A stretch of 64,000 bases of DNA from Nemertoderma westbladi (Eukaryota; Animalia; Xenacoelomorpha): contig JAUCBJ010002409.1 in assembly GCA_032718475.1 (NCBI GenBank), positions 1 to 64,000 of the forward strand, written 5' to 3'. The notes below the pieces were generated by a model that was not told where the DNA came from, did not search any database, and was given only the letters and a program-made list of their open reading frames with translations. How positions within the stretch are numbered: position 1 is the stretch's first letter; the number at the start of each line of letters is the position of its first letter. Positions 3,909 to 44,460 of the stretch are shown piece by piece. A program made the translations under genes and the position numbers.

Positions 3909-4086
3909 CTCGTTTGTGGCTGATGATTCGGCTAGCTAGGTTGCAGTTCTTAGAGTTTAACTAGGGCGGCAGCTCGGTTTTAGTTACTGTGTTTAGCTGG
4001 GGAAGCAACACCGTTTTAGTTACTGTCTAGGGGAGCAGTTGTTTAGTTACTGTGACGGGATCCAGGAGGGATCCCGATTTATCCGA

Positions 4087-4588
4087 TGTGGTATTTAGTC
4101 CACGCGTCCCCGCCGTGTATAAGAGTGAAATAGAGATAACTGAGTTCTGAAGTTCGGTGTATAATAATAGGTTATAGGATATAGATATATTGTGAATTAT
4201 ACGGTGGGCGGGATACGGTAACTAAAGTCCCGTGATCCCCTAACTAAACTAATTGGCTGTACCCTACGCTAGCACTGCTGCACTGAGATAACTGAATCAC
4301 TGATTAATAGGTTATTGGTTATATTGCACGGTGGCCTTACTGCTACTCAATCGATGCCATTCCCCCCTCTGATTGGTTAATACCCTTGTTGGCGCCCCGT
4401 GGAGTATTCCCGTTCACTCCACCTGTTCTCCTTGGGTTAGGGGTTTGGCCCCTGACCCTCTATTGTGTGCTTCCTTCCCACTCTTATTGGGATGGCACGA
4501 GTTGGTTAATTGCCCAATCTCGTGGCTCCCAATATTGCTTATCGGCTAATAACTTTATGGGGTGTTGGCGGGATTGAATAAGCTAACA
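4087..4588 (-). repeat. Putative 5' LTR (TGT...ACA, about 500 bp)
   Basis: The outer TG end at 4588 is clear. The inner end (...ATACCACA at 4087) is a guess because the second LTR is outside the window and no canonical TGG PBS follows. Confidence 0.45.
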
Positions 4589-5902
4589 GGTAGGCATATG
4601 GAGTCATTCACATCAACCTTTAGGTAGGTATATGGAGTCATTCATACATACCTTTAGGTAGGCATATGGAGTCATTCACACATACCTTTAGGTAAGCATA
4701 TGGAGTCATTCACACATACCTTTAGGTAGGCATATGGAGTCATTCACACATACCTTTAGGTAGGCATATGGAGTCATTCACACATACCTTTATGTAGGCA
4801 TATGGAGTCATTCATACATACCTTTAGGTAGGCATATGGAGTCATTCACACAAACCTTTAGGTAGGTATATGGAGTCATTCATACATACCTTTAGGTAGG
4901 CATATGGAGTCATTCACACATACCTTTAGGTAGGCATATGGAGTCATTCACACATACCTTTAGGTAGGCATATGGAGTCATTCACACATACCTTTAGGTA
5001 GGCATATGGAGTCATTCACACATACCTTTAGGTAGGCATAGGGAGGCATTCACACATACCTTTAGGTAGGCATATGGAGTCATTCATACATACCTTTAGG
5101 TAGGCATATGGAGTCATTCACACATACCTTTAGGTAGGCATATGGAGGCATTCACACATACCTTTAGGTAGGCATATGGAGTCATTCATACATCCCTTTA
5201 GGTAGGCATATGGAGTTATTCATACATACCTTTAGGTAGGCATATGGAGCCATTCACATATATCTTTATGTAGGCATATGGAGTCATTCATACATCCCTT
5301 TAGGTAGGCATATGGAGTCATTCACACATACCTTTAGGTAGGCATATGGAGGCATTCACACATACCTTTAAGTAGGCATATGGAGTCATTCATACATCCC
5401 TTTAGGTAGGCATATGGAGTTATTCATACATACCTTTAGGTAGGTATATGGAGTCATTCATACATACCTTTAGGTAGGCATATGGAGTCATTCACACATA
5501 CCTTTAGGTAGGCATATGGAGTCATTCACACATACCTTTAGGTAGGCATATGGAGTCATTCACACATACCTTTAGGTAGGCATATGGAGTCATTCACACA
5601 TACCTTTAGGTAGGCATATGGATGCATTCACACATACCTTTAGGTAGGCATATGGAGTCATTCATACATACCTTTAGGTAGGCATATGGAGTCATTCACA
5701 CATACCTTTAGGTAGGCATATGGAGGCATTCACACATACCTTTAGGTAGGCATATGGAGTCATTCATACATCCCTTTAGGTAGGCATATGGAGTTATTCA
5801 TACATACCTTTAGGTAGGCATATGGAGCCATTCACATATATCTTTATGTAGGCATATGGAGTCATTCATATATCCCTTTAGGTAGGCATATGGAGTTATT
5901 CA
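4589..5902. repeat. 34-bp tandem array (gtaggcatatggagtcattcacacatacctttag), about 38 copies
   Basis: Period 34 read directly (e.g. 4624 and 4658); each junction reads CTTTAG|GTAGGC. Confidence 0.97.
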
Positions 5903-5994
5903 TGGTCTATTTTTGTCTTTTATCTTTTAAATTGCAATTTTGATGATGACAGCATGCAAACCCTACCCTTACATTATTATATTGGTTCCCAATT

Positions 5995-6141
5995 CCCATT
6001 GTATTGGCCAGTGTAGTATGATAGCCTGTGTAAGCTGTTCCAGGCAAAGCACTGTGGCCAAACATTTCGCTCCCACCAGGGGTCGAACCGTTGCCTTCTC
6101 ATTGTATTTCCAGAATTTCACAACTACACCAAATTGCTACC
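5995..6141 (-). mobile_element. Possible degenerate tRNA-derived SINE head
   Basis: The minus strand has A-box-like TGGTGTAGTTG and B-box-like GGTTCGACCCC with tRNA-like spacing. No full cloverleaf is visible. Confidence 0.3.
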
Positions 6142-6274
6142 AGGCCCCCATAATATTTCATTGTCATTCTTATTTATTTCATCTGTAATTTTATTATGAC
6201 TGTCCAAATATTTAAATAATAAAGTAATTAACGGCACATATGTTTGAATATTTGTTTATTTTTATATATTTTAG

Positions 6275-6397
6275 GTGCGTTGGGGTGATAGCGTTGAGTT
6301 GTTTCAGGCGCAGATAAACAACGTTGTTGGCGATGTGTTTATCGCTTCGGCTTGTGTTGCTTATTACGGCGCTTTCACTAGCGAGTATAGACATCAG
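6275..6397 (+). CDS. DNAH6: Dynein heavy chain exon (VRWGDSV...[12 protein letters not shown])
   Basis: ttttag| and |gtatgt boundaries; 41 codons. Confidence 0.88.
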
Positions 6398-9300
6398 GTA
6401 TGTGATAACATATTAGTTTCCTATTATAGCTCGTTTAATTCGTCGTCACCATAACAGTTGTTTATTGCAGTTGGTATATTTCTCTGTAACAATTGTAACT
6501 TTTAGCTACAGAGGGTATACTTGGTAAAGGAATGAATGAATGGAAAAGGTAACTGTTTGTTGCATATGTTATATGGCGTTGTAACAATTATAACTTTTTG
6601 TTACATATGTTATTTGGCGTTGTAACAATTATAACTTTTTGTTACATATGTTATTTGGCGTTGTAACAATTATAACTTTTTGTTACATATGGTATATGGC
6701 GTTGTAACAATTATAACTTTTTGTTACATATGTTATTTGGCGTTGTAACAATTATAACTTTTTGTTACATATGTTATTTGGCGTTGTAACAATTATAACT
6801 TTTTGTTACATATGGTATATGGCGTTGTAACAATTATAACTTTTTGTTACATATGTTATTTGGCGTTGTAACAATTATAACTTTTTGTTACATATGTTAT
6901 TTGGCGTTGTAACAATTATAACTTTTTGTTACATATGTTATTTGGCGTTGTAACAATTATAACTTTTTGTTACATATGTTATTTGGCGTTGTAACAATTA
7001 TAACTTTTTGTTACATATGTTATTTGGCGTTGTAACAATTATAACTTTTTGTTACATATGTTATTTGGCGTTGTAACAATTATAACTTTTTGTTACATAT
7101 GGTATATGGCGTTGTAACAATTATAACTTTTTGTTACATATGTTATTCGGCGTTGTAACAATTATAACTTTTTGTTACATATGGTATATGGCGTTGTAAC
7201 AATTATAACTTTTTGTTACATATGTTATTCGGCGTTGTAACAATTATAACTTTTTGTTACATATGTTATTTGGCGTTGTAACAATTATAACTTTTTGTTA
7301 CATATGGTATATGGCGTTGTAACAATTATAACTTTTTGTTACATATGTTATTCGGCGTTGTAACAATTATAACTTTTTGTTACATATGTTATTTGGCGTT
7401 GTAACAATTATAACTTTTTGTTACATATGGTATATGGCGTTGTAACAATTATAACTTTTTGTTACATATGTTATTTGGCGTTGTAACAATTATAACTTTT
7501 TGTTACATATGGTATATGGCGTTGTAACAATTATAACTTTTTGTTACATATGTTATTTGGCGTTGTAACAATTATAACTTTTTGTTACATATGTTATTTG
7601 GCGTTGTAACAATTATAACTTTTTGTTACATATGGTATATGGCGTTGTAACAATTATAACTTTTTGTTACATATGGTATATGGCGTTGAAACAATTATAA
7701 CTTTTTGTTACATATGGTATATGTCGTTGTAACAATTATAACTTTTTGTTACATATGGTATATGTCGTTGTAACAATTATAACTTTTTGTTACATAATAT
7801 GTTATATGTCGTTGTAAGAATTGTAACTGTTGGTACAGATGGTATTTGTCATTGTAGTAACAATGGTAACTGTTGGTTACCGAGGGTATATGTCGTTGTA
7901 ACAATGGTAACTGTTTGTTACAGATGGTATATCGTTGTAACAATGGTAACTGTTTGTAACAGATGGTATATCGTTGTAACAATGTTAATTGTTGTTACAG
8001 ATGGAATATGTCGTTGTAACAATAGTAACTGTTTGTTACATATGTTATATGTCGTTGTAACTATGACAACTGTTTGTTTTCAGCTGGTGGAGATGTGGGT
8101 GAACCGATGTATAGACCTAGAAGTGCCTGTTACATCCGGTATAACGTTAACCAACGTTCTAGCCGACCCATTTGAGATCCGTCAATGGAACGCCGACGGG
8201 TTGCCTAGAGACGCAGTGTCAACAGAGAATGCCATACTCGTAACTAGAGGGCGACGTTGGCCCTTAATGATAGACCCACAGGAACAAGCCAACAGGTAAA
8301 TTATTGCCACCGTTATAGTCCACAAATTATAACTACAGTAGGACCAAACCGTTTTTGGCGCCTTCACCCATGATGGAGTAAGTACTATTTCAGCGGTAGC
8401 TGTTGTCAGAAAAAGTCTTTTTACAGACTATGTGTATTTGTGTACCAAGTTTGGTTTAATATCATCAAAGACAGACTTAAATTATTAGTATTAGTCTTCG
8501 CACATTAGGCTCCAGGTCCAGACAACGGTTGAAACATCGTTACCCGTTCGTATACTTAATTAATGGGATTCTTAACTACCCATTCGGATAGGTTTTAACA
8601 AATTATTTAATTATAATTTTAATATATAATTATTCCCCGGGTGAAATATAATTGACCATCGCAATAATCAAGTAATCCAAATATTCATTGTAATTATACA
8701 AATTTTAGGTGGATCCGAAATCGTGAGGCCAAGAACGGTCTCAAAGTCATCAAGTTGACTGACAATAACTTCCTAAGGACACTCGAGAACTGTATACGTA
8801 TAGGAATGCCAGTCCTGTTGGAAGATGTGGCTGAAACATTGGATCCAGCGTTGGAACCCATACTCCTCAAACAGACGTTCATACAGGTAGTCCAGACATT
8901 CATACAGGTAGTCCAGACATAGGTAGTCCAGACATTCATACAGGTAGTCCAGACATAGGTAGTCCAGACATTCATACAGGTAGTCGAGACATTCACACAG
9001 GTAGTCGAGACATTCATACAGGTAGGCATATGGAGTCATTCACATAAACCTTTAGGTAAGTATATGGAGTCATTCATACATACCTTTAGGTAGGCATATG
9101 GAGTCATTCACACATACCTTTAGGTAGGCATATGGAGTCATTCACACATACCTTTATTTAGGCATATTGAGTCATTCATACATACCTTTAGGTAGGCATA
9201 TGGAGTCATTCACACATACCTTTAGGTAGGCATATGGAGTCATTCACACATACCTTTAGGTAGGTATATGGAGTCATTCACACATACCTTTAGGTAGGCA

Positions 9301-12300
9301 TATGGAGTCATTCACACATATCTTTAGGTAGGTATATGGAGTCATTCACACATACCTTTAGGTAGGCATATGGAGGCATTCACACATACCTTTAGGTAGG
9401 CATATGGAGTCATTCATACATCCCTTTAGGTAGGCATATGGAGTTATTCATGGTCTATTTTTGTCTTTTATCTTTTAAATTGCAATTTTGATGATGACAG
9501 CATGCAAACCCTACCAGGGGACATTCATACAGGTAGTCCAGACATTCATACAGGTAGTCGAGACATTCACACAGGTAGTCGAGACATTCATACAGGTAGT
9601 CCAGACATTCATACAGGTAGTCGAGACATTCACACAGGTAGTCCAGACATTCATACAGGTTGTCCAGATATTCATACAGGTAGTCCAGACATTCACATAG
9701 GTAGTCCAGACATTCATACAGGTAGTCCAGACATTCATACAGGTAGTCCAGACATTCATACAGGTAGTCCAGACATTCATACAGGTAGTCGAGACATTCA
9801 CACAGGTAGTCCAGACATTCATACAGGTACTCCAGATATTCATACAGGTAGTCCAGACATTCACATAGGTAGTCCAGACATTCATACAGGTAGTCCAGAC
9901 ATTCATACAGGTAGTCCAGACATTCATACAGGTAGTCCAGACATTCATACAGGTAGTCGAGACATTCACACAGGTAGTCCAGACATTCATACAGGTAGTC
10001 GAGACATTCATACATGTAGTCCAGACATTCATACAGGTAGTCCAGACATTCATACAGGTAGTCCAGATATTTACACAGCTGGTAGTCGAGACATTCACAC
10101 AGGTAGTCCAGACATTCATACAGGTAGTCCAGACATTCATACAGGTAGTCGAGACATTCACACAGGTAGTCGAGACATTCATACAGGTAGTCCAGACATT
10201 CATACAGGTAGTCCAGACATTCATACAGGTAGTCCAGACATTCACACAGGTAGTCGAGACATTCATACAGGTAGTCCAGACATTCATACAGGTAGTCCAG
10301 ACATTCACACAGGTAGTCGAGACATTCATACAGGTAGTCCAGACATTCACACAGGTAGTCCAGACATTCATACAGGTAGTCGAGACATTCATACAGGTAG
10401 TCCGGACATTCATACAGGTAGTCCAGACATTCACACAGGTAGTCGAGACATTCATACAGGTAGTCCAGACATTCACACAGGTAGTCCAGACATTCATACA
10501 GGTAGTCGAGACATTCATACAGGTAGTCCAGACATTCACACAGGTAGTCCAGACATTCATACAGGTAGTCCAGATATTCATACAGGTAGTCCAGACATTC
10601 ACACAGGTAGTCCAGACATTCATACAGGTAGTCCAGACATTCATACAGGTAGTCCAGACATTCATACAGGTAGTCCAGACATTCACACAGGTAGTCGAGA
10701 CATTCATACAGGTAGTCCAGATATTCACACAGGTAGTCGAGACATTCACACAGGTAGTCCAGACATTCATACAGGTAGTCCAGACATTCATACAGGTAGT
10801 CCAGACATTCACACAGGTAGTCCAGACATTCATACAGGTAGTCGAGACATTCATACAGGTAGTCCAGACATTCATACAGGTAGTCCAGACATTCACACAG
10901 GTAGTCGAGACATTCATACAGGTAGTCCAGACATTCACACAGGTAGTCCAGACATTCATACAGGTAGTCCAGACATTCATACAGGTAGTCGAGACATTCA
11001 TACAGGTAGTCGAGACATTCACACAGGTAGTCGAGACAGACATTCATACAGGTAGTCCAGACATTCATACAGGTAGTCCAGACATTCATACAGGTAGTCC
11101 AGACATTCATACAGGTAGTCGAGACATTCATACAGGTAGTCGAGACATTCATACAGGTAGTCGAGACATTCATACAGGTAGTCGAGACATTCATACAGGT
11201 AGTCCAGATATTCACACAGGTAGTCCAGACATTCATACAGGTAGTCGAGACATTCATACAGGTAGTCCTGACATTCATACAGGTAGTCGAGACATTCATA
11301 CAGGTAGTCGAGACATTCACACAGGTAGTCGAGACAGACATTCATACAGGTAGTCCAGACATTCACACAGGTAGTCCAGATGTCCAGACATTCATACAGG
11401 TTATCCAAGTCCATTAATTTATACATTAATTATAGAGAAATTGAATTTAATTATTTTCGCCTACTTCTTTCAATCGGGTTAGTCAACGTGTCGGACATCA
11501 ATTATGGAAGACACCTGTTCCATCGCACGACGTTCAATGTCTCAACCACTGTCCCGATATTGTCTCATATCGAAATAAATGCTGAGTTACCGTGGTGACA
11601 GTGGTCAGCATAGATGTAAATAAAGCACAGTGACTTAAATGACTTTTCAATATAAGTAAGCAAAACAGCATCATATAGGTATTATTCTCAACTATTTTAT
11701 TGATTGGTATTTCTTTCTAACTCATTATTCCTTGATCTCATTCGTAGGGCGGCCGATTACTCATCCGTTTGGGAGACTCGGATATCGATTACGATAAAAA
11801 TTTCCGTTTCTACATGACCAGCAAGATGGCCAATCCGCATTATCTACCCGAAATCTGCATTAAAGTTACCATTATTAACTTTACTGTAACCCGAAGTGGA
11901 TTGGAGGATCAGTTGCTAAGGTAGGTATCTCATAGCTGATTGGTCTATTATATCAGTGATCATTGTAGTTTATAGATAATATAGATTACGATCTTTCAAC
12001 TTTTTATCTCTCCGTATCAGCACTGCTCCGAATTAGGCCTACTAAGATATCTGATAATAAGATTAAAGTTTACTAACACATTGGGTACCTTCTGTAGATG
12101 TAATTTGTTTCCATAGCGACGTTGTTCGATTGGAACGTCCCGATCTGGAGGAGCAACGGAACCAGTTGATCGTCCGAATAAACGCCGATAAAAACCAACT
12201 GAAACTAATCGAAGATCGGATACTCAAACTATTGTTCACCTCGCAGGGGAATATATTGGATGACGAGGAACTCATTAACACTCTCAATGAATCCAAGGTT

Positions 12301-15300
12301 ATTTTTACTGCAAATAGTATAAAATCTAAAGAAATAAAACGAAAATATAAAATATTATAAATATCCTAAAGATTCAAAATTTTGCTGGTCCAATTCTCTC
12401 CCTATAATGTTGAGTTGAATTATTTTATAGATTACCAGTGGGGTTATAACAACCCGACTGAAGGAAGCTGAGGAGACTGAGGCTAAGATCTCGGTTGCTA
12501 GGGAACGCTACCGACCCGTTGCTACCAGAGGGTCTGTACTTTATTTCATTGTTGCCTCTCTCGCCAATATCGATTCCATGTATCAGTTCTCTCTGAAATA
12601 TTTCAAACAGGTTAGAAACTTAGTGTCGAGTATTTATTCCTGGTGACTTACAACAATTTATCGTAGGCTCTAATATTAATTAATATTATTAAAAGTCTAT
12701 CTTCTAGTTTAGGTGCCCTAAGCAATTACAGACCACCATTGTGTAATATCGGTTGTTTATAGTTAACTGCCAGTATGTCGTTGTTGGGCCCAGTATTTGA
12801 CATTTTGTGGTTGTAAAATAAAATGCTAATTCGACATTTTATCTGATATAAATAATTAAATAATATCAAGTACTCTTTCATTTAATTATCGCCATCTTTT
12901 AATTACCTTGTCAGCTTTAGCATTACAGTTTTACTAGATTGTTGTATATAAATGTTGAAATATTGTAATAAAGATAGAAATTACATTACAAGAAATTACA
13001 ACAGTTTCCGTAGAGTTCAAAGGTTAACCAGTTGGTACATTAATAAATTGAATCGATAATTATTTATTAATTGAAGAGCTAATTAATATGATCGCTATTT
13101 ACCAGCATCGCTAATTAATTAATTTTGCTCTATAATTTTCTCAGCTATTCAACACGACTATAGAGGTGAGTGAGAAATCGTCTGACCTGGATGAGCGACT
13201 CAACATTCTCCTCAACGAGATCACCAGGTTTATCTACTCCAACGTCTCACGGGGTCTCTTCGAGAAAGATAAACTCGTCTTCTCTTTCATGATGTGCGGC
13301 GATATTATGAGACTGGAACGCGGAAGTATTACAGAGTTGGAGTGGAACCTATTCCTCCGAGGGGCTCCAGGAATGGACAGGGTGAGTGTTCTATCCGGGA
13401 TAAAATATACAAACATATGTCTGTATTATTTATTATATTTACATAAACTTTTTAATCCTTTTCAACACCAACCCATAAGTGTTTCAGGTGGTTTACCAAT
13501 AAATATTTCTCTATATTATATATTTAAATTAAAAAGATAAAAAATAACTTAATTTATAAATTTCAAATAAATTTTTTTAACAATTTTTTTGTAATATTAT
13601 TTATATTTATATCCGTAGCAACATCCCCCGAAACCCGATGTCCATTGGTTGACTCCGATTGTGTGGAAAAACATTTGTGATTTGGAAGAAACTCTTGATT
13701 GCTTTAAAGGAATACAACAAGCTATTGCTGTAACTTCTATAGCTGTAACAATAGGCGATGTTACGGTGAGTAAACCCTTCCTCATTGGTCAAATTTATTG
13801 CAATCTTAATTAATGTATTGCTGTAAAACCTGTAAAAAGGACAATGTATTCTATTGTTGTGATTTGATTTACCACAGGTTGATGGATTTCAAGGCGACAG
13901 CAGTGAAGCAATCAGCGGCGATGTCGTTTCGGATTGGGATTCCAGATTAACGAGTTTCCAAAAACTAATTCTAATCAAATCCGTTAAAGACGAAAAGGTA
14001 AACTAAATGAGTAAAGTAGAAAAGTAAAGTAGAAAAGTAAAGTAGAAAAGTAAAGTAGAAAAGTAAAGTAGAAAAGTAAAGTAGAAAAGTAAAGTAGAAA
14101 AGTAAAGTAGAAAAGTAAAGTAGAAAAGTAAATTAGAAAAGTAAAGTGGAAAAGTAAAGTAGAAAAGTAAAGTAGAAAAGTAAAGTAGAAAAGTAAAGTA
14201 GAAAAGTAAAGTAGAAAAGTAAAGTAGAAAAGTAAAGTAGAAAAGTAAAGTGGAAAAGTAAAGTAGAAAAGTAAAGTAGAAAAGTAAAGTAGAAAAGTAA
14301 AGTAGAAAAGTAAAGTGGAAAAGTAAAGTAGAAAAGTAAAGTAGAAAAGTAAAGTAGAAAAGTAAAGTAGAAAAGTAAAGTAGAAAAGTAAAGTAGAAAA
14401 GTAAAGTAGAAAAGTGAAGTGGAAAAGTAAAGTAGAAAAGTAAAGTGGAAAAGTAAAGTAGAAAAGTAAAGTAGAAAAGTAAAGTAGAAAATTCTCCCTC
14501 CATTCTGGAACCATCAGGACTCTGCCGCAATGACGGGAAGCGTGTAGACGGGGTGACACTTGTGCCTTGGTCCCAGGGTCGAATGCTAACCTGGGATGCC
14601 ACAGTGGTTGACCCCCTTGCCCCTAGTCACCGCCAACAGACGCTAATTGCAGGGGGTCGTGCTGCAGAGGGTGCCGAACAGGGAAAGAACTTGACATATG
14701 CGGAGGTGATGGAGCGGGGTCATATATTTCACCCTGTTGCGTTCGAGACCCTGGGGCGCCCCGGTCCGGAGACGTCCTCCTTCCTCCAGGAGATTGGGTC
14801 CCGTCTCCACACCATGACTCATGAGCCGCGCTCCCACAGGTTTCTACTTCAGCGTATCGTCATGGCCATTCTGGTGGGCAACGCGGCGTCTGTCCTGGCA
14901 ACTGCTGGCCCATCCCCTGGTGGACTCTTTGGGGATTAGGGCCCGGTCAGTAGCCTTTGCCGTAGCATACTCTAACGCAATGTTCAATGTATCGTATATT
15001 ACAATATTACTTTTAGTTTTATATTATATCTTAGTAACGGTGCCATTGTAACATCTCTATTTTTGATTTACACCGGTTTTTTGGTGTTAGAAATTTGATG
15101 GAATTCATATAAATTGGTTTATCTGTTATAGATGCTAATAATTTGTTATTTTTAATGTTTGTTGAAGTAGAAAAGAAAAGTAGAAAAGAAAAGTAGAAAA
15201 GAAAAGTAGAAAAGTAAAGTAGAAAAGTAAAGTGGAAAAGTAAAGTAGAAAAGTAAAGTAGAAAAGTAAAGTAGAAAAGTAAAGTAGAAAAGTAAAGTAG

Positions 15301-33300: not shown

Positions 33301-36300
33301 TTTAACACGAGTCGGGGTTCTATCTACTACCGGTAAGTTTATTTAACACGAGCCGGGGTTCTATCTACCGGTAAGTTTATTTAACACGAGCCGGGGTTCT
33401 ATCTACTACCGGTAAGTTTATTTAACACGAGCCGGGGTTCTATCTACTACCGGTAAGTTTATTTAACACGAGCCGGGGTTCTATCTACTACCGGTAAGTT
33501 TATTTAACACGAGCCGGGGTTCTATCTACTACCGGTAAGTTTATTTAACACGAGCCGGGGTTCTATCTACTACCGGTAAGTTTATTTAACACGAGCCGGG
33601 GTTCTATCTACTACCGGTAAGTTTATTTAACACGAGCCGGGGTTCTATCTACTACCGGTAAGTTTATTTAACACGAGTCGGGGTTCTATCTACTACCGGT
33701 AAGTTTATTTAACACGAGCCGGGGTTCTATCTACTACCGGTAAGTTTATTTAACACGAGCCGGGGTTCTATCTACTACCGGTAAGTTTATTTAACACGAG
33801 CCGGGGTTCTATCTACTACCGGTAAGTTTATTTAACACGAGCCGGGGTTCTATCTACCGGTAAGTTTATTTAACACGAGCCGGGGTTCTATCTACCGGTA
33901 AGTTTATTTAACACGAGTCGGGGTTCTATCTACCGGTAAGTTTATTTAACACGAGCCGGGGTTCTATCTACTACCGGTAAGTTTATTTAACACGAGCCGG
34001 GGTTCTATCTACCGGTAAGTTTATTTAACACGAGCCGGGGTTCTATCTACCGGTAAGTTTATTTAACACGAGCCGGGGTTCTATCTACTACCGGTAAGTT
34101 TATTTAACACGAGCCGGGGTTCTATCTACTACCGGTAAGTTTATTTAACACGAGCCGGGGTTCTATCTACTACCGGTAAGTTTATTTAACACGAGTCGGG
34201 GTTCTATCTACCGGTAAGTTTATTTAACACGAGCCGGGGTTCTATCTACTACCGGTAAGTTTATTTAACACGAGCCGGGGTTCTATCTACCGGTAAGTTT
34301 ATTTAACACGAGCCGGGGTTCTATCTACTACCGGTAAGTTTATTTAACACGAGTCGGGGTTCTATCTACCGGTAAGTTTATTTAACACGAGCCGGGGTTC
34401 TATCTACTACCGGTAAGTTTATTTAACACGAGCCGGGGTTCTATCTACTACCGGTAAGTTTATTTAACACGAGTCGGGGTTCTATCTACCGGTAAGTTTA
34501 TTTAACACGAGCCGGGGTTCTATCTACCGGTAAGTTTATTTAACACGAGCCGGGGTTCTATCTACTACCGGTAAGTTTATTTAACACGAGCCGGGGTTCT
34601 ATCTACCGGTAAGTTTATTTAACACGAGTCGGGGTTCTATCTACTACCGGTAAGTTTATTTAACACGAGCCGGGGTTCTATCTACTACCGGTAAGTTTAT
34701 TTAACACGAGTCGGGGTTCTATCTACCGGTAAGTTTATTTAACACGAGCCGGGGTTCTATCTACCGGTAAGTTTATTTAACACGAGTCGGGGTTCTATCT
34801 ACTACCGGTAAGTTTATTTAACACGAGCCGGGGTTCTATCTACTACCGGTAAGTTTATTTAACACGAGCCGGGGTTCTATCTACTACCGGTAAGTTTATT
34901 TAACACGAGCCGGGGTTCTATCTACTACCGGTAAGTTTATTTAACACGAGCCGGGGTTCTATCTACTACCGGTAAGTTTATTTAACACGAGTCGGGGTTC
35001 TATCTACTACCGGTAAGTTTATTTAACACGAGCCGGGGTTCTATCTACTACCGGTAAGTTTATTTAACACGAGTCGGGGTTCTATCTACCGGTAAGTTTA
35101 TTTAACACGAGCCGGGGTTCTATCTACTACCGGTAAGTTTATTTAACACGAGCCGGGGTTCTATCTACTACCGGTAAGTTTATTTAACACGAGCCGGGGT
35201 TCTATCTACTACCGGTAAGTTTATTTAACACGAGCCGGGGTTCTATCTACTACCGGTAAGTTTATTTAACACGAGCCGGGGTTCTATCTACTACCGGTAA
35301 GTTTATTTAACACGAGCCGGGGTTCTATCTACTACCGGTAAGTTTATTTAACACGAGCCGGGGTTCTATCTACTACCGGTAAGTTTATTTAACACGAGTC
35401 GGGGTTCTATCTACTACCGGTAAGTTTATTTAACACGAGCCGGGGTTCTATCTACTACCGGTAAGTTTATTTAACACGAGTCGGGGTTCTATCTACCGGT
35501 AAGTTTATTTAACACGAGCCGGGGTTCTATCTACCGGTAAGTTTATTTAACACGAGCCGGGGTTCTATCTACCGGTAAGTTTATTTAACACGAGTCGGGG
35601 TTCTATCTACTACCGGTAAGTTTATTTAACACGAGCCGGGGTTCTATCTACTACCGGTAAGTTTATTTAACACGAGCCGGGGTTCTATCTACTACCGGTA
35701 AGTTTATTTAACACGAGCCGGGGTTCTATCTACTACCGGTAAGTTTATTTAACACGAGCCGGGGTTCTATCTACTACCGGTAAGTTTATTTAACACGAGC
35801 CGGGGTTCTATCTACTACCGGTAAGTTTATTTAACACGAGCCGGGGTTCTATCTACTACCGGTAAGTTTATTTAACACGAGCCGGGGTTCTATCTACTAC
35901 CGGTAAGTTTATTTAACACGAGCCGGGGTTCTATCTACTACCGGTAAGTTTATTTAACACGAGCCGGGGTTCTATCTACTACCGGTAAGTTTATTTAACA
36001 CGAGCCGGGGTTCTATCTACTACCGGTAAGTTTATTTAACACGAGCCGGGGTTCTATCTACTACCGGTAAGTTTATTTAACACGAGCCGGGGTTCTATCT
36101 ACTACCGGTAAGTTTATTTAACACGAGCCGGGGTTCTATCTACTACCGGTAAGTTTATTTAACACGAGTCGGGGTTCTATCTACTACCGGTAAGTTTATT
36201 TAACACGAGCCGGGGTTCTATCTACTACCGGTAAGTTTATTTAACACGAGCCGGGGTTCTATCTACCGGTAAGTTTATTTAACACGAGCCGGGGTTCTAT

Positions 36301-39300
36301 CTACCGGTAAGTTTATTTAACACGAGCCGGGGTTCTATCTACTACCGGTAAGTTTATTTAACACGAGCCGGGGTTCTATCTACTACCGGTAAGTTTATTT
36401 AACACGAGCCGGGGTTCTATCTACTACCGGTAAGTTTATTTAACACGAGCCGGGGTTCTATCTACCGGTAAGTTTATTTAACACGAGCCGGGGTTCTATC
36501 TACTACCGGTAAGTTTATTTAACACGAGCCGGGGTTCTATCTACTACCGGTAAGTTTATTTAACACGAGCCGGGGTTCTATCTACTACCGGTAAGTTTAT
36601 TTAACACGAGCCGGGGTTCTATCTACTACCGGTAAGTTTATTTAACACGAGCCGGGGTTCTATCTCTACCGGTAAGTTTATTTAACACGAGCCGGGGTTC
36701 TATCTACTACCGGTAAGTTTATTTAACACGAGCCGGGGTTCTATCTACTACCGGTAAGTTTATTTAACACGAGCCGGGGTTCTATCTACTACCGGTAAGT
36801 TTATTTAACACGAGCCGGGGTTCTATCTACTACCGGTAAGTTTATTTAACACGAGCCGGGGTTCTATCTACTACCGGTAAGTTTATTTAACACGAGCCGG
36901 GGTTCTATCTACTACCGGTAAGTTTATTTAACACGAGCCGGGGTTCTATCTACTACCGGTAAGTTTATTTAACACGAGCCGGGGTTCTATCTACTACCGG
37001 TAAGTTTATTTAACACGAGCCGGGGTTCTATCTACTACCGGTAAGTTTATTTAACACGAGCCGGGGTTCTATCTACCGGTAAGTTTATTTAACACGAGCC
37101 GGGGTTCTATCTACTACCGGTAAGTTTATTTAACACGAGCCGGGGTTCTATCTACTACCGGTAAGTTTATTTAACACGAGCCGGGGTTCTATCTACTACC
37201 GGTAAGTTTATTTAACACGAGCCGGGGTTCTATCTACCGGTAAGTTTATTTAACACGAGCCGGGGTTCTATCTACTACCGGTAAGTTTATTTAACACGAG
37301 CCGGGGTTCTATCTACTACCGGTAAGTTTATTTAACACGAGCCGGGGTTCTATCTACTACCGGTAAGTTTATTTAACACGAGCCGGGGTTCTATCTACTA
37401 CCGGTAAGTTTATTTAACACGAGCCGGGGTTCTATCTACTACCGGTAAGTTTATTTAACACGAGCCGGGGTTCTATCTACTACCGGTAAGTTTATTTAAC
37501 ACGAGCCGGGGTTCTATCTACTACCGGTAAGTTTATTTAACACGAGCCGGGGTTCTATCTACTACCGGTAAGTTTATTTAACACGAGCCGGGGTTCTATC
37601 TACTACCGGTAAGTTTATTTAACACGAGCCGGGGTTCTATCTACTACCGGTAAGTTTATTTAACACGAGCCGGGGTTCTATCTACTACCGGTAAGTTTAT
37701 TTAACACGAGCCGGGGTTCTATCTACTACCGGTAAGTTTATTTAACACGAGCCGGGGTTCTATCTACTACCGGTAAGTTTATTTAACACGAGCCGGGGTT
37801 CTATCTACTACCGGTAAGTTTATTTAACACGAGCCGGGGTTCTATCTACTACCGGTAAGTTTATTTAACACGAGCCGGGGTTCTATCTACTACCGGTAAG
37901 TTTATTTAACACGAGCCGGGGTTCTATCTACTACCGGTAAGTTTATTTAACACGAGCCGGGGTTCTATCTACTACCGGTAAGTTTATTTAACACGAGCCG
38001 GGGTTCTATCTACTACCGGTAAGTTTATTTAACACGAGCCGGGGTTCTATCTACTACCGGTAAGTTTATTTAACACGAGCCGGGGTTCTATCTACTACCG
38101 GTAAGTTTATTTAACACGAGCCGGGGTTCTATCTACTACCGGTAAGTTTATTTAACACGAGCCGGGGTTCTATCTACTACCGGTAAGTTTATTTAACACG
38201 AGCCGGGGTTCTATCTACTACCGGTAAGTTTATTTAACACGAGCCGGGGTTCTATCTACTACCGGTAAGTTTATTTAACACGAGCCGGGGTTCTATCTAC
38301 TACCGGTAAGTTTATTTAACACGAGCCGGGGTTCTATCTACTACCGGTAAGTTTATTTAACACGAGCCGGGGTTCTATCTACTACCGGTAAGTTTATTTA
38401 ACACGAGCCGGGGTTCTATCTACTACCGGTAAGTTTATTTAACACGAGCCGGGGTTCTATCTACTACCGGTAAGTTTATTTAACACGAGCCGGGGTTCTA
38501 TCTACTACCGGTAAGTTTATTTAACACGAGCCGGGGTTCTATCTACCGGTAAGTTTATTTAACACGAGCCGGGGTTCTATCTACCGGTAAGTTTATTTAA
38601 CACGAGCCGGGGTTCTATCTACCGGTAAGTTTATTTAACACGAGCCGGGGTTCTATCTACTACCGGTAAGTTTATTTAACACGAGCCGGGGTTCTATCTA
38701 CTACCGGTAAGTTTATTTAACACGAGCCGGGGTTCTATCTACTACCGGTAAGTTTATTTAACACGAGCCGGGGTTCTATCTACTACCGGTAAGTTTATTT
38801 AACACGAGCCGGGGTTCTATCTACTACCGGTAAGTTTATTTAACACGAGCCGGGGTTCTATCTACTACCGGTAAGTTTATTTAACACGAGCCGGGGTTCT
38901 ATCTACTACCGGTAAGTTTATTTAACACGAGCCGGGGTTCTATCTACTACCGGTAAGTTTATTTAACACGAGCCGGGGTTCTATCTACTACCGGTAAGTT
39001 TATTTAACACGAGCCGGGGTTCTATCTACTACCGGTAAGTTTATTTAACACGAGCCGGGGTTCTATCTACTACCGGTAAGTTTATTTAACACGAGCCGGG
39101 GTTCTATCTACTACCGGTAAGTTTATTTAACACGAGCCGGGGTTCTATCTACTACCGGTAAGTTTATTTAACACGAGCCGGGGTTCTATCTACTACCGGT
39201 AAGTTTATTTAACACGAGCCGGGGTTCTATCTACTACCGGTAAGTTTATTTAACACGAGCCGGGGTTCTATCTACTACCGGTAAGTTTATTTAACACGAG

Positions 39301-42300
39301 CCGGGGTTCTATCTACCGGTAAGTTTATTTAACACGAGCCGGGGTTCTATCTACCGGTAAGTTTATTTAACACGAGCCGGGGTTCTATCTACTACCGGTA
39401 AGTTTATTTAACACGAGCCGGGGTTCTATCTACCGGTAAGTTTATTTAACACGAGCCGGGGTTCTATCTACTACCGGTAAGTTTATTTAACACGAGCCGG
39501 GGTTCTATCTACTACCGGTAAGTTTATTTAACACGAGCCGGGGTTCTATCTACTACCGGTAAGTTTATTTAACACGAGCCGGGGTTCTATCTACCGGTAA
39601 GTTTATTTAACACGAGCCGGGGTTCTATCTACTACCGGTAAGTTTATTTAACACGAGCCGGGGTTCTATCTACTACCGGTAAGTTTATTTAACACGAGCC
39701 GGGGTTCTATCTACTACCGGTAAGTTTATTTAACACGAGCCGGGGTTCTATCTACTACCGGTAAGTTTATTTAACACGAGCCGGGGTTCTATCTACTACC
39801 GGTAAGTTTATTTAACACGAGCCGGGGTTCTATCTACCGGTAAGTTTATTTAACACGAGCCGGGGTTCTATCTACTACCGGTAAGTTTATTTAACACGAG
39901 CCGGGGTTCTATCTACTACCGGTAAGTTTATTTAACACGAGCCGGGGTTCTATCTACTACCGGTAAGTTTATTTAACACGAGCCGGGGTTCTATCTACCG
40001 GTAAGTTTATTTAACACGAGCCGGGGTTCTATCTACTACCGGTAAGTTTATTTAACACGAGCCGGGGTTCTATCTACCGGTAAGTTTATTTAACACGAGC
40101 CGGGGTTCTATCTACTACCGGTAAGTTTATTTAACACGAGCCGGGGTTCTATCTACTACCGGTAAGTTTATTTAACACGAGCCGGGGTTCTATCTACCGG
40201 TAAGTTTATTTAACACGAGCCGGGGTTCTATCTACTACCGGTAAGTTTATTTAACACGAGCCGGGGTTCTATCTACTACCGGTAAGTTTATTTAACACGA
40301 GCCGGGGTTCTATCTACTACCGGTAAGTTTATTTAACACGAGCCGGGGTTCTATCTACTACCGGTAAGTTTATTTAACACGAGCCGGGGTTCTATCTACT
40401 ACCGGTAAGTTTATTTAACACGAGCCGGGGTTCTATCTACCGGTAAGTTTATTTAACACGAGCCGGGGTTCTATCTACTACCGGTAAGTTTATTTAACAC
40501 GAGCCGGGGTTCTATCTACTACCGGTAAGTTTATTTAACACGAGCCGGGGTTCTATCTACTACCGGTAAGTTTATTTAACACGAGCCGGGGTTCTATCTA
40601 CTACCGGTAAGTTTATTTAACACGAGCCGGGGTTCTATCTACTACCGGTAAGTTTATTTAACACGAGCCGGGGTTCTATCTACCGGTAAGTTTATTTAAC
40701 ACGAGCCGGGGTTCTATCTACTACCGGTAAGTTTATTTAACACGAGCCGGGGTTCTATCTACTACCGGTAAGTTTATTTAACACGAGCCGGGGTTCTATC
40801 TACTACCGGTAAGTTTATTTAACACGAGCCGGGGTTCTATCTACCGGTAAGTTTATTTAACACGAGCCGGGGTTCTATCTACTACCGGTAAGTTTATTTA
40901 ACACGAGCCGGGGTTCTATCTACCGGTAAGTTTATTTAACACGAGCCGGGGTTCTATCTACTACCGGTAAGTTTATTTAACACGAGTCGGGGTTCTATCT
41001 ACCGGTAAGTTTATTTAACACGAGCCGGGGTTCTATCTACTACCGGTAAGTTTATTTAACACGAGCCGGGGTTCTATCTACTACCGGTAAGTTTATTTAA
41101 CACGAGCCGGGGTTCTATCTACCGGTAAGTTTATTTAACACGAGCCGGGGTTCTATCTACCGGTAAGTTTATTTAACACGAGCCGGGGTTCTATCTACTA
41201 CCGGTAAGTTTATTTAACACGAGCCGGGGTTCTATCTACCGGTAAGTTTATTTAACACGAGCCGGGGTTCTATCTACTACCGGTAAGTTTATTTAACACG
41301 AGCCGGGGTTCTATCTACTACCGGTAAGTTTATTTAACACGAGCCGGGGTTCTATCTACTACCGGTAAGTTTATTTAACACGAGCCGGGGTTCTATCTAC
41401 CGGTAAGTTTATTTAACACGAGCCGGGGTTCTATCTACTACCGGTAAGTTTATTTAACACGAGCCGGGGTTCTATCTACTACCGGTAAGTTTATTTAACA
41501 CGAGCCGGGGTTCTATCTACTACCGGTAAGTTTATTTAACACGAGCCGGGGTTCTATCTACTACCGGTAAGTTTATTTAACACGAGCCGGGGTTCTATCT
41601 ACTACCGGTAAGTTTATTTAACACGAGCCGGGGTTCTATCTACTACCGGTAAGTTTATTTAACACGAGCCGGGGTTCTATCTACTACCGGTAAGTTTATT
41701 TAACACGAGTCGGGGTTCTATCTACCGGTAAGTTTATTTAACACGAGCCGGGGTTCTATCTACCGGTAAGTTTATTTAACACGAGCCGGGGTTCTATCTA
41801 CCGGTAAGTTTATTTAACACGAGCCGGGGTTCTATCTACTACCGGTAAGTTTATTTAACACGAGCCGGGGTTCTATCTACCGGTAAGTTTATTTAACACG
41901 AGCCGGGGTTCTATCTACTACCGGTAAGTTTATTTAACACGAGCCGGGGTTCTATCTACTACCGGTAAGTTTATTTAACACGAGCCGGGGTTCTATCTAC
42001 CGGTAAGTTTATTTAACACGAGCCGGGGTTCTATCTACTACCGGTAAGTTTATTTAACACGAGCCGGGGTTCTATCTACTACCGGTAAGTTTATTTAACA
42101 CGAGCCGGGGTTCTATCTACTACCGGTAAGTTTATTTAACACGAGCCGGGGTTCTATCTACCGGTAAGTTTATTTAACACGAGCCGGGGTTCTATCTACT
42201 ACCGGTAAGTTTATTTAACACGAGCCGGGGTTCTATCTACTACCGGTAAGTTTATTTAACACGAGCCGGGGTTCTATCTACTACCGGTAAGTTTATTTAA

Positions 42301-44460
42301 CACGAGCCGGGGTTCTATCTACTACCGGTAAGTTTATTTAACACGAGCCGGGGTTCTATCTACTACCGGTAAGTTTATTTAACACGAGCCGGGGTTCTAT
42401 CTACCGGTAAGTTTATTTAACACGAGCCGGGGTTCTATCTACTACCGGTAAGTTTATTTAACACGAGCCGGGGTTCTATCTACTACCGGTAAGTTTATTT
42501 AACACGAGCCGGGGTTCTATCTACTACCGGTAAGTTTATTTAACACGAGCCGGGGTTCTATCTACCGGTAAGTTTATTTAACACGAGCCGGGGTTCTATC
42601 TACTACCGGTAAGTTTATTTAACACGAGCCGGGGTTCTATCTACTACCGGTAAGTTTATTTAACACGAGCCGGGGTTCTATCTACTACCGGTAAGTTTAT
42701 TTAACACGAGCCGGGGTTCTATCTACTACCGGTAAGTTTATTTAACACGAGCCGGGGTTCTATCTACTACCGGTAAGTTTATTTAACACGAGCCGGGGTT
42801 CTATCTACCGGTAAGTTTATTTAACACGAGCCGGGGTTCTATCTACTACCGGTAAGTTTATTTAACACGAGTCGGGGTTCTATCTACTACCGGTAAGTTT
42901 ATTTAACACGAGCCGGGGTTCTATCTACTACCGGTAAGTTTATTTAACACGAGCCGGGGTTCTATCTACCGGTAAGTTTATTTAACACGAGCCGGGGTTC
43001 TATCTACTACCGGTAAGTTTATTTAACACGAGCCGGGGTTCTATCTACCGGTAAGTTTATTTAACACGAGCCGGGGTTCTATCTACTACCGGTAAGTTTA
43101 TTTAACACGAGCCGGGGTTCTATCTACCGGTAAGTTTATTTAACACGAGCCGGGGTTCTATCTACTACCGGTAAGTTTATTTAACACGAGCCGGGGTTCT
43201 ATCTACTACCGATAAGTTTATTTAACACGAGCCGGGGTTCTATCTACCGGTAAGTTTATTTAACACGAGCCGGGGTTCTATCTACTACCGGTAAGTTTAT
43301 TTAACACGAGCCGGGGTTCTATCTACTACCGGTAAGTTTATTTAACACGAGCCGGGGTTCTATCTACTACCGGTAAGTTTATTTAACACGAGCCGGGGTT
43401 CTATCTACTACCGGTAAGTTTATTTAACACGAGCCGGGGTTCTATCTACTACCGGTAAGTTTATTTAACACGAGCCGGGGTTCTATCTACTACCGGTAAG
43501 TTTATTTAACACGAGCCGGGGTTCTATCTACCGGTAAGTTTATTTAACACGAGCCGGGGTTCTATCTACTACCGGTAAGTTTATTTAACACGAGCCGGGG
43601 TTCTATCTACTACCGGTAAGTTTATTTAACACGAGCCGGGGTTCTATCTACTACCGGTAAGTTTATTTAACACGAGCCGGGGTTCTATCTACTACCGGTA
43701 AGTTTATTTAACACGAGCCGGGGTTCTATCTACTACCGGTAAGTTTATTTAACACGAGCCGGGTTCTATCTACTACCGGTAAGTTTATTTAACACGAGCC
43801 GGGGTTCTATCTACCGGTAAGTTTATTTAACACGAGCCGGGGTTCTATCTACTACCGGTAAGTTTATTTAACACGAGCCGGGGTTATATCTACTACCGGT
43901 AAGTTTATTTAACACGAGTCGGGGTTCTATCTACCGGTAAGTTTATTTAACACGAGCCGGGGTTCTATCTACTACCGGTAAGTTTATTTAACACGAGTCG
44001 GGGTTCTATCTACTACCGGTAAGTTTATTTAACACGAGTCGGGGTTCTATCTACTACCGGTAAGTTTATTTAACACGAGTCGGGGTTCTATCTACCGGTA
44101 AGTTTATTTAACACGAGCCGGGGTTCTATCTACTACCGGTAAGTTTATTTAACACGAGTCGGGGTTCTATCTACTACCGGTAAGTTAATTTAACACGAGT
44201 CGGGGTTCTATCTACTACCGGTAAGTTTATTTAACATGAGTCGGGGTTCTATCTACCGGTAAGTTTATTTAACACGAGCCGGGGTTCTATCTACTACCGG
44301 TAAGTTTATTTAACACGAGCCGGGGTTCTATCTACTTCCCATTTGGTATTTTGTAGGTCATTCAACTAATTTCGTTGTGGCTTCACACTTGCCGACAGAT
44401 ACCCCTAGTGACTATTGGATATCCATGGGAACTGCGTTGCTATGTCAACTTAATGAGTAG
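6275..44460 (+). CDS. DNAH6: Axonemal dynein heavy chain 6-like, C-terminal ~1171 aa (end of stalk, AAA5, AAA6, C-terminal domain); 21 exons, 5' part outside the window
   Basis: Join 6275-6397, 8084-8295, 8709-8886, 11748-11920, 12117-12297, 12431-12610, 13145-13381, 13619-13765, 13878-13997, 16273-16463, 16655-16799, 16931-17120, 17943-18043, 19050-19154, 19589-19825, 20497-20667, 20859-20945, 29877-30062, 30392-30616, 31086-31308, 44357-44460. All introns are GT-AG, phases are compatible, total 3516 nt with no internal stop. Motifs: [82 protein letters not shown]...CQLNE. The paralogue call (DNAH6) is from recalled similarity. Confidence 0.9.
6455..8080. repeat. 41-bp tandem array (gttacatatgttatttggcgttgtaacaattataacttttt), about 30 homogeneous copies with degenerate flanks
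   Basis: Period 41 (6600, 6641). Degenerate units continue up to the acceptor at 8083. Confidence 0.95.
8084..8295 (+). CDS. DNAH6: Dynein heavy chain exon (LVEMWV...[14 protein letters not shown])
   Basis: tttcag| and |gtaaat boundaries; AAA5-region motif. Confidence 0.92.
8709..8886 (+). CDS. DNAH6: Dynein heavy chain exon (WIRNRE...[16 protein letters not shown])
   Basis: ttttag| and |gtagtc boundaries; phase-compatible with neighbours. Confidence 0.92.
8872..11400. repeat. 21-bp tandem array (cagacattcatacaggtagtc) derived from the exon end + donor, about 95 copies, interrupted at 9022-9519
   Basis: The unit matches the exon 3' end cagacgttcatacag|gtagtc (8872-8892). Confidence 0.96.
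9022..9515. repeat. Second copy of the 34-bp array (about 12 units) plus its 67-bp unique tail
   Basis: 9449-9515 is identical to 5901-5967. Confidence 0.95.
11748..11920 (+). CDS. DNAH6: Dynein heavy chain exon ([10 protein letters not shown]...NPHYLPE...LEDQLL)
   Basis: cgtag| and |gtaggt boundaries; conserved motif. Confidence 0.92.
12117..12297 (+). CDS. DNAH6: Dynein heavy chain exon ([14 protein letters not shown]...[17 protein letters not shown])
   Basis: catag| and |gttatt boundaries. Confidence 0.92.
12431..12610 (+). CDS. DNAH6: Dynein heavy chain exon (ITSGVI...YRPVATRGS...[11 protein letters not shown])
   Basis: tatag| and |gttaga boundaries; 60 codons. Confidence 0.92.
13145..13381 (+). 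CDS. DNAH6: Dynein heavy chain exon (LFNTTI...[15 protein letters not shown]...GMDR)
   Basis: ctcag| and |gtgagt boundaries; 79 codons. Confidence 0.9.
13619..13765 (+). CDS. DNAH6: Dynein heavy chain exon ([11 protein letters not shown]...)
   Basis: cgtag| and |gtgagt boundaries; 49 codons. Confidence 0.85.
13878..13997 (+). CDS. DNAH6: Dynein heavy chain exon (...[21 protein letters not shown])
   Basis: cacag| and |gtaaac boundaries; 40 codons. Confidence 0.85.
14011..14490. repeat. 13-bp purine-rich array (gtaaagtagaaaa), left block
   Basis: Directly visible; begins 13 nt after the donor GAAAAG|GTAAAC. Confidence 0.96.
14492..15165 (+). mobile_element. 5'-truncated non-LTR retrotransposon with restriction-like endonuclease (CRE-like): ORF end (stop at 14939) + AT-rich 3' UTR
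   Basis: Frame reads [36 protein letters not shown]...K...Y...[10 protein letters not shown], the RPDG/WDxT/FETLG pattern of CRE-clade RLE domains. The 3' boundary is approximate. Confidence 0.75.
15166..16200. repeat. 13-bp purine-rich array, right block (more variants, including AGAAAG|GTAAAG)
   Basis: Directly visible. Confidence 0.96.
16273..16463 (+). CDS. DNAH6: Dynein heavy chain exon (VVVSAN...[12 protein letters not shown]...)
   Basis: tgtag| and |gttagt boundaries; AAA6 motif. Confidence 0.92.
16655..16799 (+). CDS. DNAH6: Dynein heavy chain exon ([12 protein letters not shown]...[11 protein letters not shown])
   Basis: tctag| and |gtagta boundaries. Confidence 0.93.
16931..17120 (+). 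CDS. DNAH6: Dynein heavy chain exon (...FRLFLSSMP...[11 protein letters not shown]...)
   Basis: cacag| and |gtaagt boundaries. Confidence 0.93.
17943..18043 (+). CDS. DNAH6: Dynein heavy chain exon (...[19 protein letters not shown])
   Basis: tctag| and |gtgagt boundaries. Confidence 0.93.
18210..18560 (-). mobile_element. Degenerate RTE-like LINE fragment, same family as 46276-46971
   Basis: Shares blocks with 46600-46760: gtctggttggagatgtg, ccatccagagatttggtgtc, gttagagcccagcatg, gaggagtactggaactactgctgctctaaataatc. Ends are approximate. Confidence 0.75.
19050..19154 (+). CDS. DNAH6: Dynein heavy chain exon (YEFSESD...[12 protein letters not shown])
   Basis: cgcag| and |gtgagt boundaries. 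Confidence 0.92.
19413..19588. repeat. 22-bp tandem array of the acceptor region (cgactttatgttattcccatag), about 8 copies
   Basis: The last unit ends in the true acceptor AG at 19587-19588. Confidence 0.92.
19589..19825 (+). CDS. DNAH6: Dynein heavy chain exon ([14 protein letters not shown]...[12 protein letters not shown])
   Basis: catag| and |gttgat boundaries. Confidence 0.93.
20497..20667 (+). CDS. DNAH6: Dynein heavy chain exon (MQETSAL...ILGVQPR...DMFE)
   Basis: tttag| and |gtgaat boundaries. Confidence 0.9.
20859..20945 (+). CDS. DNAH6: Dynein heavy chain exon ([29 protein letters not shown])
   Basis: tttag| and |gtaagt boundaries. Confidence 0.92.
21015..29868. repeat. 43-bp tandem array (tgccaaccacacgatcggagggttttactttcatttcctttag), about 205 copies
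   Basis: Period 43 (21062, 21105). It fills intron 20946-29876, and the last unit supplies the polypyrimidine tract of the true acceptor. Confidence 0.98.
29877..30062 (+). CDS. DNAH6: Dynein heavy chain exon ([16 protein letters not shown]...[12 protein letters not shown]...)
   Basis: tttag| and |gtgagt boundaries; 62 codons. Confidence 0.93.
30392..30616 (+). CDS. DNAH6: Dynein heavy chain exon (HWVRNG...[19 protein letters not shown]...)
   Basis: tgcag| and |gttggt boundaries. Confidence 0.93.
31086..31308 (+). CDS. DNAH6: Dynein heavy chain penultimate exon ([20 protein letters not shown]...[16 protein letters not shown])
   Basis: ttcag| and |gtaagt boundaries. Confidence 0.93.
31282..44336. 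repeat. 41/38-bp tandem array (cacgagccggggttctat[cta]ctaccg-gtaagtttatttaa), about 325 copies; unit = last 27 nt of the exon + donor + intron start
   Basis: The first unit overlaps the coding exon (31282-31308). The array ends about 20 nt before the acceptor at 44356. Confidence 0.98.
44357..44460 (+). CDS. DNAH6: Dynein heavy chain last coding exon ([33 protein letters not shown])
   Basis: ttgtag| acceptor, phase 1, TAG at 44458-44460; typical inner-arm dynein C-terminus. Confidence 0.93.

Follow-up and report, generated by a model that had tools for sequence, protein, structure and literature searches.

The DNAH6 dynein gene analysed here carries tandem arrays in seven introns, and we think it probable that these arrays are mirage minisatellites in an expressed gene, namely local copies of DNA at or beside exon borders that likely have no function and likely do no harm, since the splicing machinery picks the first donor and the last acceptor. 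The 3' part of the gene occupies 6275-44460 on the + strand of the window, the whole 64,000-nucleotide stretch of Nemertoderma westbladi DNA that was studied, and its last 21 exons fall within it.

Gene structure and inventory of arrays

DNAH6 exons 1-7, + strand: 6275-6397, 8084-8295, 8709-8886, 11748-11920, 12117-12297, 12431-12610, 13145-13381
DNAH6 exons 8-14, + strand: 13619-13765, 13878-13997, 16273-16463, 16655-16799, 16931-17120, 17943-18043, 19050-19154
DNAH6 exons 15-21, + strand: 19589-19825, 20497-20667, 20859-20945, 29877-30062, 30392-30616, 31086-31308, 44357-44460 (stop)

All 20 introns between these exons have GT-AG ends, and the spliced length is 3,516 nt, corresponding to 1,171 codons and one terminal stop. 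The unbroken frame over 21 exons described by the first-pass annotation is thus confirmed, the sole stop being at the end. Its description of an intact dynein gene holds for the open frame, the 21 exons and the GT-AG ends, and applies to the 3' 1,171 codons alone, the 5' part lying beyond the window. A PDB search with exon 15 ranked DNAH6 chains first (E 2e-35), and the spliced protein aligns end-to-end with mollusc DNAH6 at 68% identity, with zero gaps at the junctions of six array introns. A quick tree built from 39 DNAH6 sequences (annelids, echinoderms and lancelets being absent from the named rows) placed the protein apart from those of vertebrates, molluscs, flatworms, rotifers and arthropods, in no supported group. 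The donors of exons 5, 6, 10, 15 and 19 (5 of 20) start with GTT, unlike the usual GTA or GTG.

The age of the introns was assessed against 80 metagenome loci, of which 16 gave at least three aligned pieces and seven were used for intron positions; none of the 80 was a related locus of the same organism. Introns 1 and 20 occur at the same position in one locus (L013) and intron 3 in another (L036), both from unrelated eukaryotes, and these introns were therefore not created by their arrays. The same sharing rules out intron gain by tandem duplication (the Rogers model) for introns 1, 3 and 20. Introns 9, 14 and 17 are missing from L013, L040 and L075, or ambiguous there. Two dynein loci of unrelated eukaryotes (L032:11220-13012 and L055:5790-9480) likewise have introns packed with short repeats.

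TRF recovered all seven of the array-bearing introns that the first-pass annotation had listed, each with its own array, with units of 34, 41, 21, 13, 22, 43 and 41/38 bp; its limits for the 21-, 13-, 22- and 43-bp arrays are 8872-11380, 14010-16200, 19394-19587 and 21025-29868. The arrays cover 28,894 of the 39,768 nt in the span 4589-44356 (72.7%), in agreement with the earlier estimate of well over half. The arrays and the elements that touch them are as follows.

1-4588, - strand: retrotransposon with a gag-like DUF1759 ORF (PF03564, E 6.5e-12)
4588-5902, + strand: 34-bp array, ~39 copies, in the intron preceding the first visible exon
6398-8088, + strand: intron 1, almost wholly one 39-41-bp repeat (TRF array 6550-8078)
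8872-11408, + strand: 21-bp donor array, intron 3, unit of 15 nt of exon 3 plus the donor
9020-9515, + strand: 34-bp block inside the 21-bp array, ~13 units (9020-9450) plus 65 nt of unique flank
13985-16200, + strand: 13-bp array, intron 9, ~117 copies; a 673-nt insertion (14492-15164) divides it into two blocks
19394-19588, + strand: 22-bp acceptor array, intron 14, the last copy ending on the real AG
21007-29868, + strand: 43-bp array, intron 17, ~205 copies of a pyrimidine tract, 19 interspersed unit types, ending 8 nt before exon 18
31282-44336, + strand: 41/38-bp donor array, intron 20, 324 units plus a 23-nt partial, 12 unit types

The units are unrelated to one another, the 34/21 pair excepted, and to speak of a gene-wide system was an overstatement. 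Once the arrays are collapsed, the remainders of the array introns are short, at 34-345 nt; the 14 array-free introns have a median length of 283 nt. No decayed repeat was detected in the remainders of introns 0, 3, 9, 14, 17 and 20, where 9-83% of control windows reach the same score.

Repeat units at donor and acceptor sites

The 21- and 41/38-bp units are donor-derived, as the first-pass annotation had proposed, and contain 15 and 27 nt of their own exon end. The 21-bp unit differs from the end of exon 3 by one synonymous base; its array stays in frame with exon 3 until a stop after the second copy, and the 9-mer of the real donor recurs unchanged 86 times in intron 3. The 41/38-bp unit consists of the 27 terminal nt of exon 20 and 14 nt of intron. 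Among the 323 downstream units of intron 20, 322 keep a donor 9-mer identical to the real one, which illustrates the mirage trait of GT/AG retained in many, not all, copies, and each downstream donor runs into a stop 11 nt in. Intron 20 is the largest intron (13,048 nt), with a remainder of 34 nt outside the array. The 13-bp unit, thought earlier to be probably donor-derived, can now be called exon-derived more precisely: 11 of its 13 positions agree with the 13 nt that close exon 9, and no other of ~3,500 coding 13-mers scores so high. A Pfam search of the ORF in the insertion at 14492-15164 gave no match.

On the acceptor side, the 5' end of intron 1 (6398-6548) consists of decayed copies of its repeat, the 5' part scoring 112 against a maximum of 62 in 261 control windows. 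The ~30 young copies at 6590-7790 amount to 1,201 nt without any AG. The old copies have eight AG in 291 nt and resemble the acceptor of the intron; judged by their alignment, which reaches 5 nt into exon 2, they probably cross it. In intron 14 a lone 22-bp copy lies at 19184-19205, and the upstream copies retain AG in two of nine cases and lack it in seven. Between the lone copy and the array, at ~19210-19330, a short element with inverted ends was seen by eye, possibly a MITE that divided an older array. In the 43-bp array of intron 17 the AG arises where two copies meet.

Three arrays span an exon boundary, those of 21, 13 and 41/38 bp (15, 13 and 27 nt of exon respectively); the intron-1 array probably does so, and the 22-bp array terminates on AG. 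The 43-bp array leaves a gap of 8 nt before its exon, and 372 nt separate the 34-bp array from the nearest visible acceptor; these two are junction-adjacent or derived, outside strict mirage membership. The three repeats that the first-pass annotation called acceptor-associated do lie on the acceptor side: the 22-bp array and, probably, the degenerate 41-bp copies reach the junction, and the 43-bp array does not.

The 34-bp array is cut on its 5' side by the retroelement at 1-4588, which we take to be of BEL/Pao type and whose TG...CA terminal segment adjoins the array start. The AG/GT junction reported for the 34-bp unit, a candidate ratchet point of recursive splicing, is present, scoring 3.3 as an acceptor and 6.0 as a donor on gene-derived matrices, but with no visible splice site there the signal of its own intron is not established as the source. 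The array has also been duplicated into intron 3. Its flank at 5903-5967 is 100% identical to 9451-9515, beyond the 34-bp block in the 21-bp array, and the left join of that block falls in an AGGTAG common to both units. The 34- and 21-bp units have a 10-nt core and AGGTAG in common; in a post hoc comparison, 50 of 5,000 shuffles matched as well for the majority unit and 1 of 5,000 for the best variant. Given this likeness, the 34-bp unit may be a second-generation copy of the 21-bp unit.

Palindromes that we take to resemble the RFX X-box consensus were observed at 7848-8070, 12107-12120, 19192-19570 and 57833-58105. They occur in both acceptor-side units and in a 129-bp unit (9, 2 and 1 of 300 shuffles as good, post hoc) and in none of 11 other units tested; outside arrays, 8 of 10 lie within the DNAH6 gene body. 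They are possible seed motifs, or possible sites of RFX binding in a ciliary gene.

Beyond the gene, the window holds the following features.

45294-45724 and 47807-48246: 440-bp inverted repeat pair, 87% identical
46318-46938, inside that pair: decayed reverse-transcriptase-like fragment (DUF6451, below cut-off), with a second copy in DNAH6 intron 13 (18321-18483)
51649-56257, minus strand: presumably a MAP4K/Misshapen-like gene, represented by two long exons; CNH domain present (PF00780, E 1.6e-45)
53644-53891 (30-bp) and 55413-55708 (21-bp): arrays of coding repeats within the exons at 51649-56257, away from junctions
59928-61288: perfect 682-bp tandem duplication inside a long minus-strand ORF region (58317-63539)

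A Pfam search of the 979-aa ORF at 58317-63539 gave no match; the region is probably a transposon, and the 682-bp duplication is probably either very recent or an assembly slip.

Splicing past repeated splice signals

Decoy sites were scored on matrices built from the splice sites of DNAH6 itself. Strong decoys number in the hundreds in introns 3, 17 and 20 only, and in introns 1, 9 and 14 the score of the real site is reached by 0-3 others. In intron 17, 148 decoy acceptors score at least as high as the real acceptor. A branch-point account of the choice made there (a YTNAY motif 24 nt from the real acceptor and ~7 nt closer to each decoy) loses force, the motif being absent at 6 of 21 real acceptors.

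Four runs (X1-X4) were aligned to 29810-31370. Run X4 yielded a single contig, of 1,838 nt, from which introns 18 and 19 are missing with GT..AG limits; its loose ends carry the last bases of exon 17 on one side and the first bases of exon 21 on the other. Depth inside introns is zero and the word share is 0.20 against 0.193 expected for exons only, and X4 is therefore read as a transcript assembly, although its automatic classification was DNA. The contig joins exons 17/18 and 20/21 at the predicted bases: in intron 17 it takes the last acceptor, in intron 20 the first donor. Hence normal DNAH6 mRNA is made from the authentic sites of introns 17-20, as recorded in this one contig; contigs drop rare isoforms, and array lengths in the X4 sample may differ from those of the window. 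The earlier statement that the spliceosome must ignore hundreds of decoys is borne out by the X4 contig for introns 17 and 20, but decoys in such numbers exist in three introns rather than throughout.

When the 32 nearest decoys were translated, 31 led to a premature stop; the second 21-bp donor alone keeps the frame, adding seven residues. Such outcomes would suit arrays that tune DNAH6 dosage or timing through decoys and nonsense-mediated decay, or that act like the introns of Drosophila kl-3 and kl-5, and some precedent comes from the ABCA7 VNTR, whose length is reported to track splicing changes (PMC5954066), and from the special expression programme that kl-3 and kl-5 are described as requiring (PMC6508621). 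We nevertheless regard a function of this kind as very unlikely: the units are unrelated, differ in age and are interrupted by insertions, the array introns measure 0.4-13 kb rather than megabases, the X4 contig has normal joins only, and AG is absent from the acceptor-side majority units. We found nothing in support of a dynein-specific role of the arrays. The absence of AG from the young copies of intron 1 and from most upstream 22-bp copies fits selection against decoy acceptors, and the 43-bp array goes against it; for the 22-bp unit, loss of AG is indistinguishable from its original absence.

The remaining runs bear on the reality of the arrays. Both large units (43-bp and 41/38-bp) are present in all three intron-bearing DNA runs, from two samples, at more than 40 times the unique depth; in X1 the unit depths are 4,395-5,500 and 1,657-2,110 against a unique depth of 34. 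Since both units appear in DNA from two samples, these two arrays are not assembly artefacts. That the arrays as a whole were created by assembly is a reading to which we give hardly any weight. It draws on the runs of more than 30 identical units, which are open to miscounting, and on a short-read depth excess that varies among runs and often falls under the assembled copy number, contig depth being no measure of copies. It is countered by the mixture of unit types within the two big arrays (12 and 19, interspersed), by the excess itself, and by an X1 contig over the unique middle that ends within the first unit on either side. The copy numbers given are those of the assembly, and the true ones may differ.

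Runs X2 and X3 carry both the 38- and the 41-bp form, a variant common to the samples. Single-base differences from the window mark X1 and X2 as probably other individuals. At position 29874 (-3 of the intron 17 acceptor) X1 and X2 have C where the window has T, and X2 differs also at 29870; these differences are polymorphism in the 8 nt that separate the real acceptor from the decoys.

Origin of the arrays and known counterparts

The first-pass annotation had named as the parallel Drosophila kl-3 and kl-5, which encode axonemal dyneins. The likeness, that of an axonemal dynein gene with introns filled with repeats, is real but weak. Fingerhut et al. 2019 (PMC6508621) describe kl-3 and kl-5 introns made of megabases of simple satellite, which amount to more than 99% of the locus and for which there are dedicated RNA-binding proteins; these introns are not built of junction copies. 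With a largest intron of 13,048 nt and units of 13-43 bp, intron gigantism of the kl-3/kl-5 type is ruled out for DNAH6. Closer counterparts are the amphioxus mirages and the boundary VNTRs of human F7, CBS, LMNB2 and ABCA7.

The name mirage goes back to amphioxus Adh3 (Canestro et al. 2002, as cited in later papers). Amphioxus mirages have been described in Adh3 and the globins BflGb6 and BflGb9 (Ebner et al. 2010, PMC3087553) and in troponin C and PGBD5 (PMC3902484), as tandem duplications of 5' and 3' exon-intron boundaries that leave splicing undisturbed and whose origin is termed unclear (PMC3087553). The DNAH6 arrays resemble them in having boundary copies at both 5' and 3' sites, in overlapping unit sizes (10-72 bp in Adh3), in lacking AG/GT in some copies, in normal splicing, and in edge copies that escape homogenisation. 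They differ in copy number, where up to 205-324 in DNAH6 compare with 2-7 for the globins and PGBD5, in affecting six or seven introns of one gene, though Adh3 may also hold several mirages, and in that one DNAH6 array was copied into another.

Human donor-spanning VNTRs are known from F7 intron 7 (37 bp), CBS intron 13, 6-16, LMNB2 and PDGF (Borensztajn et al. 2006, PMC1557585). According to that account the first unit of the F7-type VNTRs covers the exon end and donor and is followed by identical pseudo-donors, as in DNAH6, and the most upstream donor is used in F7, LMNB2 and PDGF, as in DNAH6 intron 20. Unlike DNAH6, they have 5-26 copies and one array per gene, CBS and 6-16 use the second or third donor, and the portion of PMC1557585 at hand describes no acceptor-side arrays. 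For the VNTR in ABCA7 intron 18, De Roeck et al. 2018 (PMC5954066) report alleles as long as ~427 units, or 10.7 kb, and the size of the DNAH6 arrays therefore has precedent. That array begins at the donor GT; its unit is, however, reported to be without exon sequence, it is a single locus, and its length affects exon skipping. Taken together, the DNAH6 arrays likely belong to the known boundary minisatellites of the amphioxus mirage and human F7 type, of which they would be a dense and harmless example.

Whether repeats are born preferentially at boundaries can be judged from the six fully visible arrays, of which five (liberal count) or four (conservative count) touch or cross a junction. 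A gene-wide null, with seeds spread evenly over collapsed intron DNA and later insertions in array-free introns left out, gives an expectation of ~1.0 (P 0.0005 for five and 0.008 for four). A per-intron null, with each array collapsed in its own intron, gives 2.5-2.9 (P 0.02, 0.14 and 0.28), and counting intron 1 wholly as repeat gives 3.1-3.6 (P 0.05 and 0.15); should arrays have eaten away the interior of introns, for which the mere 34 nt left of intron 20 speak, this null would be too lenient. All six arrays lie at most 10 nt from a junction (P 0.0001 gene-wide, 0.006 per intron), a threshold picked after looking. Because the per-intron P values range from 0.02 to 0.28 and this single gene was selected for its striking look, the boundary bias in repeat birth claimed by the first-pass annotation is suggestive; what stands is that units were copied locally from borders and that the gene-wide null is rejected.

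A mutation process that targets exon-intron borders, through transcription or spliceosome pausing, R-loops or nucleosome edges, would explain this excess and the closeness of all six arrays, but as the main cause it appears unlikely to us. Apart from the per-intron result and the selection of the gene, the 34-, 23- and 129-bp arrays of the window lie at no visible junction. Moreover, no array unit contains an exon-exon join, and hairpin seeding gave z values of +0.14 to -2.23 in seven of eight stretches (the 13-bp one not being computable), with no common signal. A transcription-, splicing- or R-loop-coupled origin, as suggested earlier, is accordingly unsupported.

We favour instead a model in which local duplication, tolerance and expansion act in turn. 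Slippage or break repair would first duplicate 13-43 bp in a short intron. The first donor and last acceptor then rebuild the mRNA, as seen in introns 17 and 20 and as would apply elsewhere, and since the mRNA is normal, junction-crossing copies survive. Unequal exchange, slippage and conversion would expand and homogenise the array, as the variant blocks and decayed edge copies suggest. Finally, arrays are sometimes copied between introns, presumably by repair at shared short sequence; the duplication is exemplified by the 34-bp block within the 21-bp array. Neutrality is assumed throughout. The closeness of arrays to splice sites then likely has its main source in the shortness of the introns, in the tolerance shown to copies that cross a junction and in the disappearance of intron interior that is dispensable. 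Geometry alone may be insufficient, as the gene-wide null is rejected (P 0.0005-0.008), and a mutational bias may add to it. A bolder version, in which junction duplications are preferred genome-wide, grow to hundreds, replace introns (as in intron 1) and seed others (21-bp to 34-bp), with selection removing AGs and tolerating donors, strikes us as unlikely.

The literature searched yielded no genome-wide test of junction bias, and the portions at hand of two papers on human repeats and splicing (PMC2812944, PMC10078293) contained no test of junction enrichment. With the origin of mirages called unclear (PMC3087553), an array-rich genome would permit such a test. What is notable in DNAH6 is the density of arrays and the choice of acceptor in intron 17. 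The first-donor rule was derived from human F7 (PMC1557585), we found no comparable rule in print for skipping ~200 upstream acceptors, and intron 17 is the acceptor-side counterpart to the F7 first-donor experiment. If the genome-wide version were true, this intron, in which the last acceptor prevails over ~150 upstream acceptors of equal or greater strength, would provide a natural exon-definition assay. The DNAH6 arrays provide transcript evidence that 322 identical donors and ~200 acceptor-like repeats leave splicing correct.
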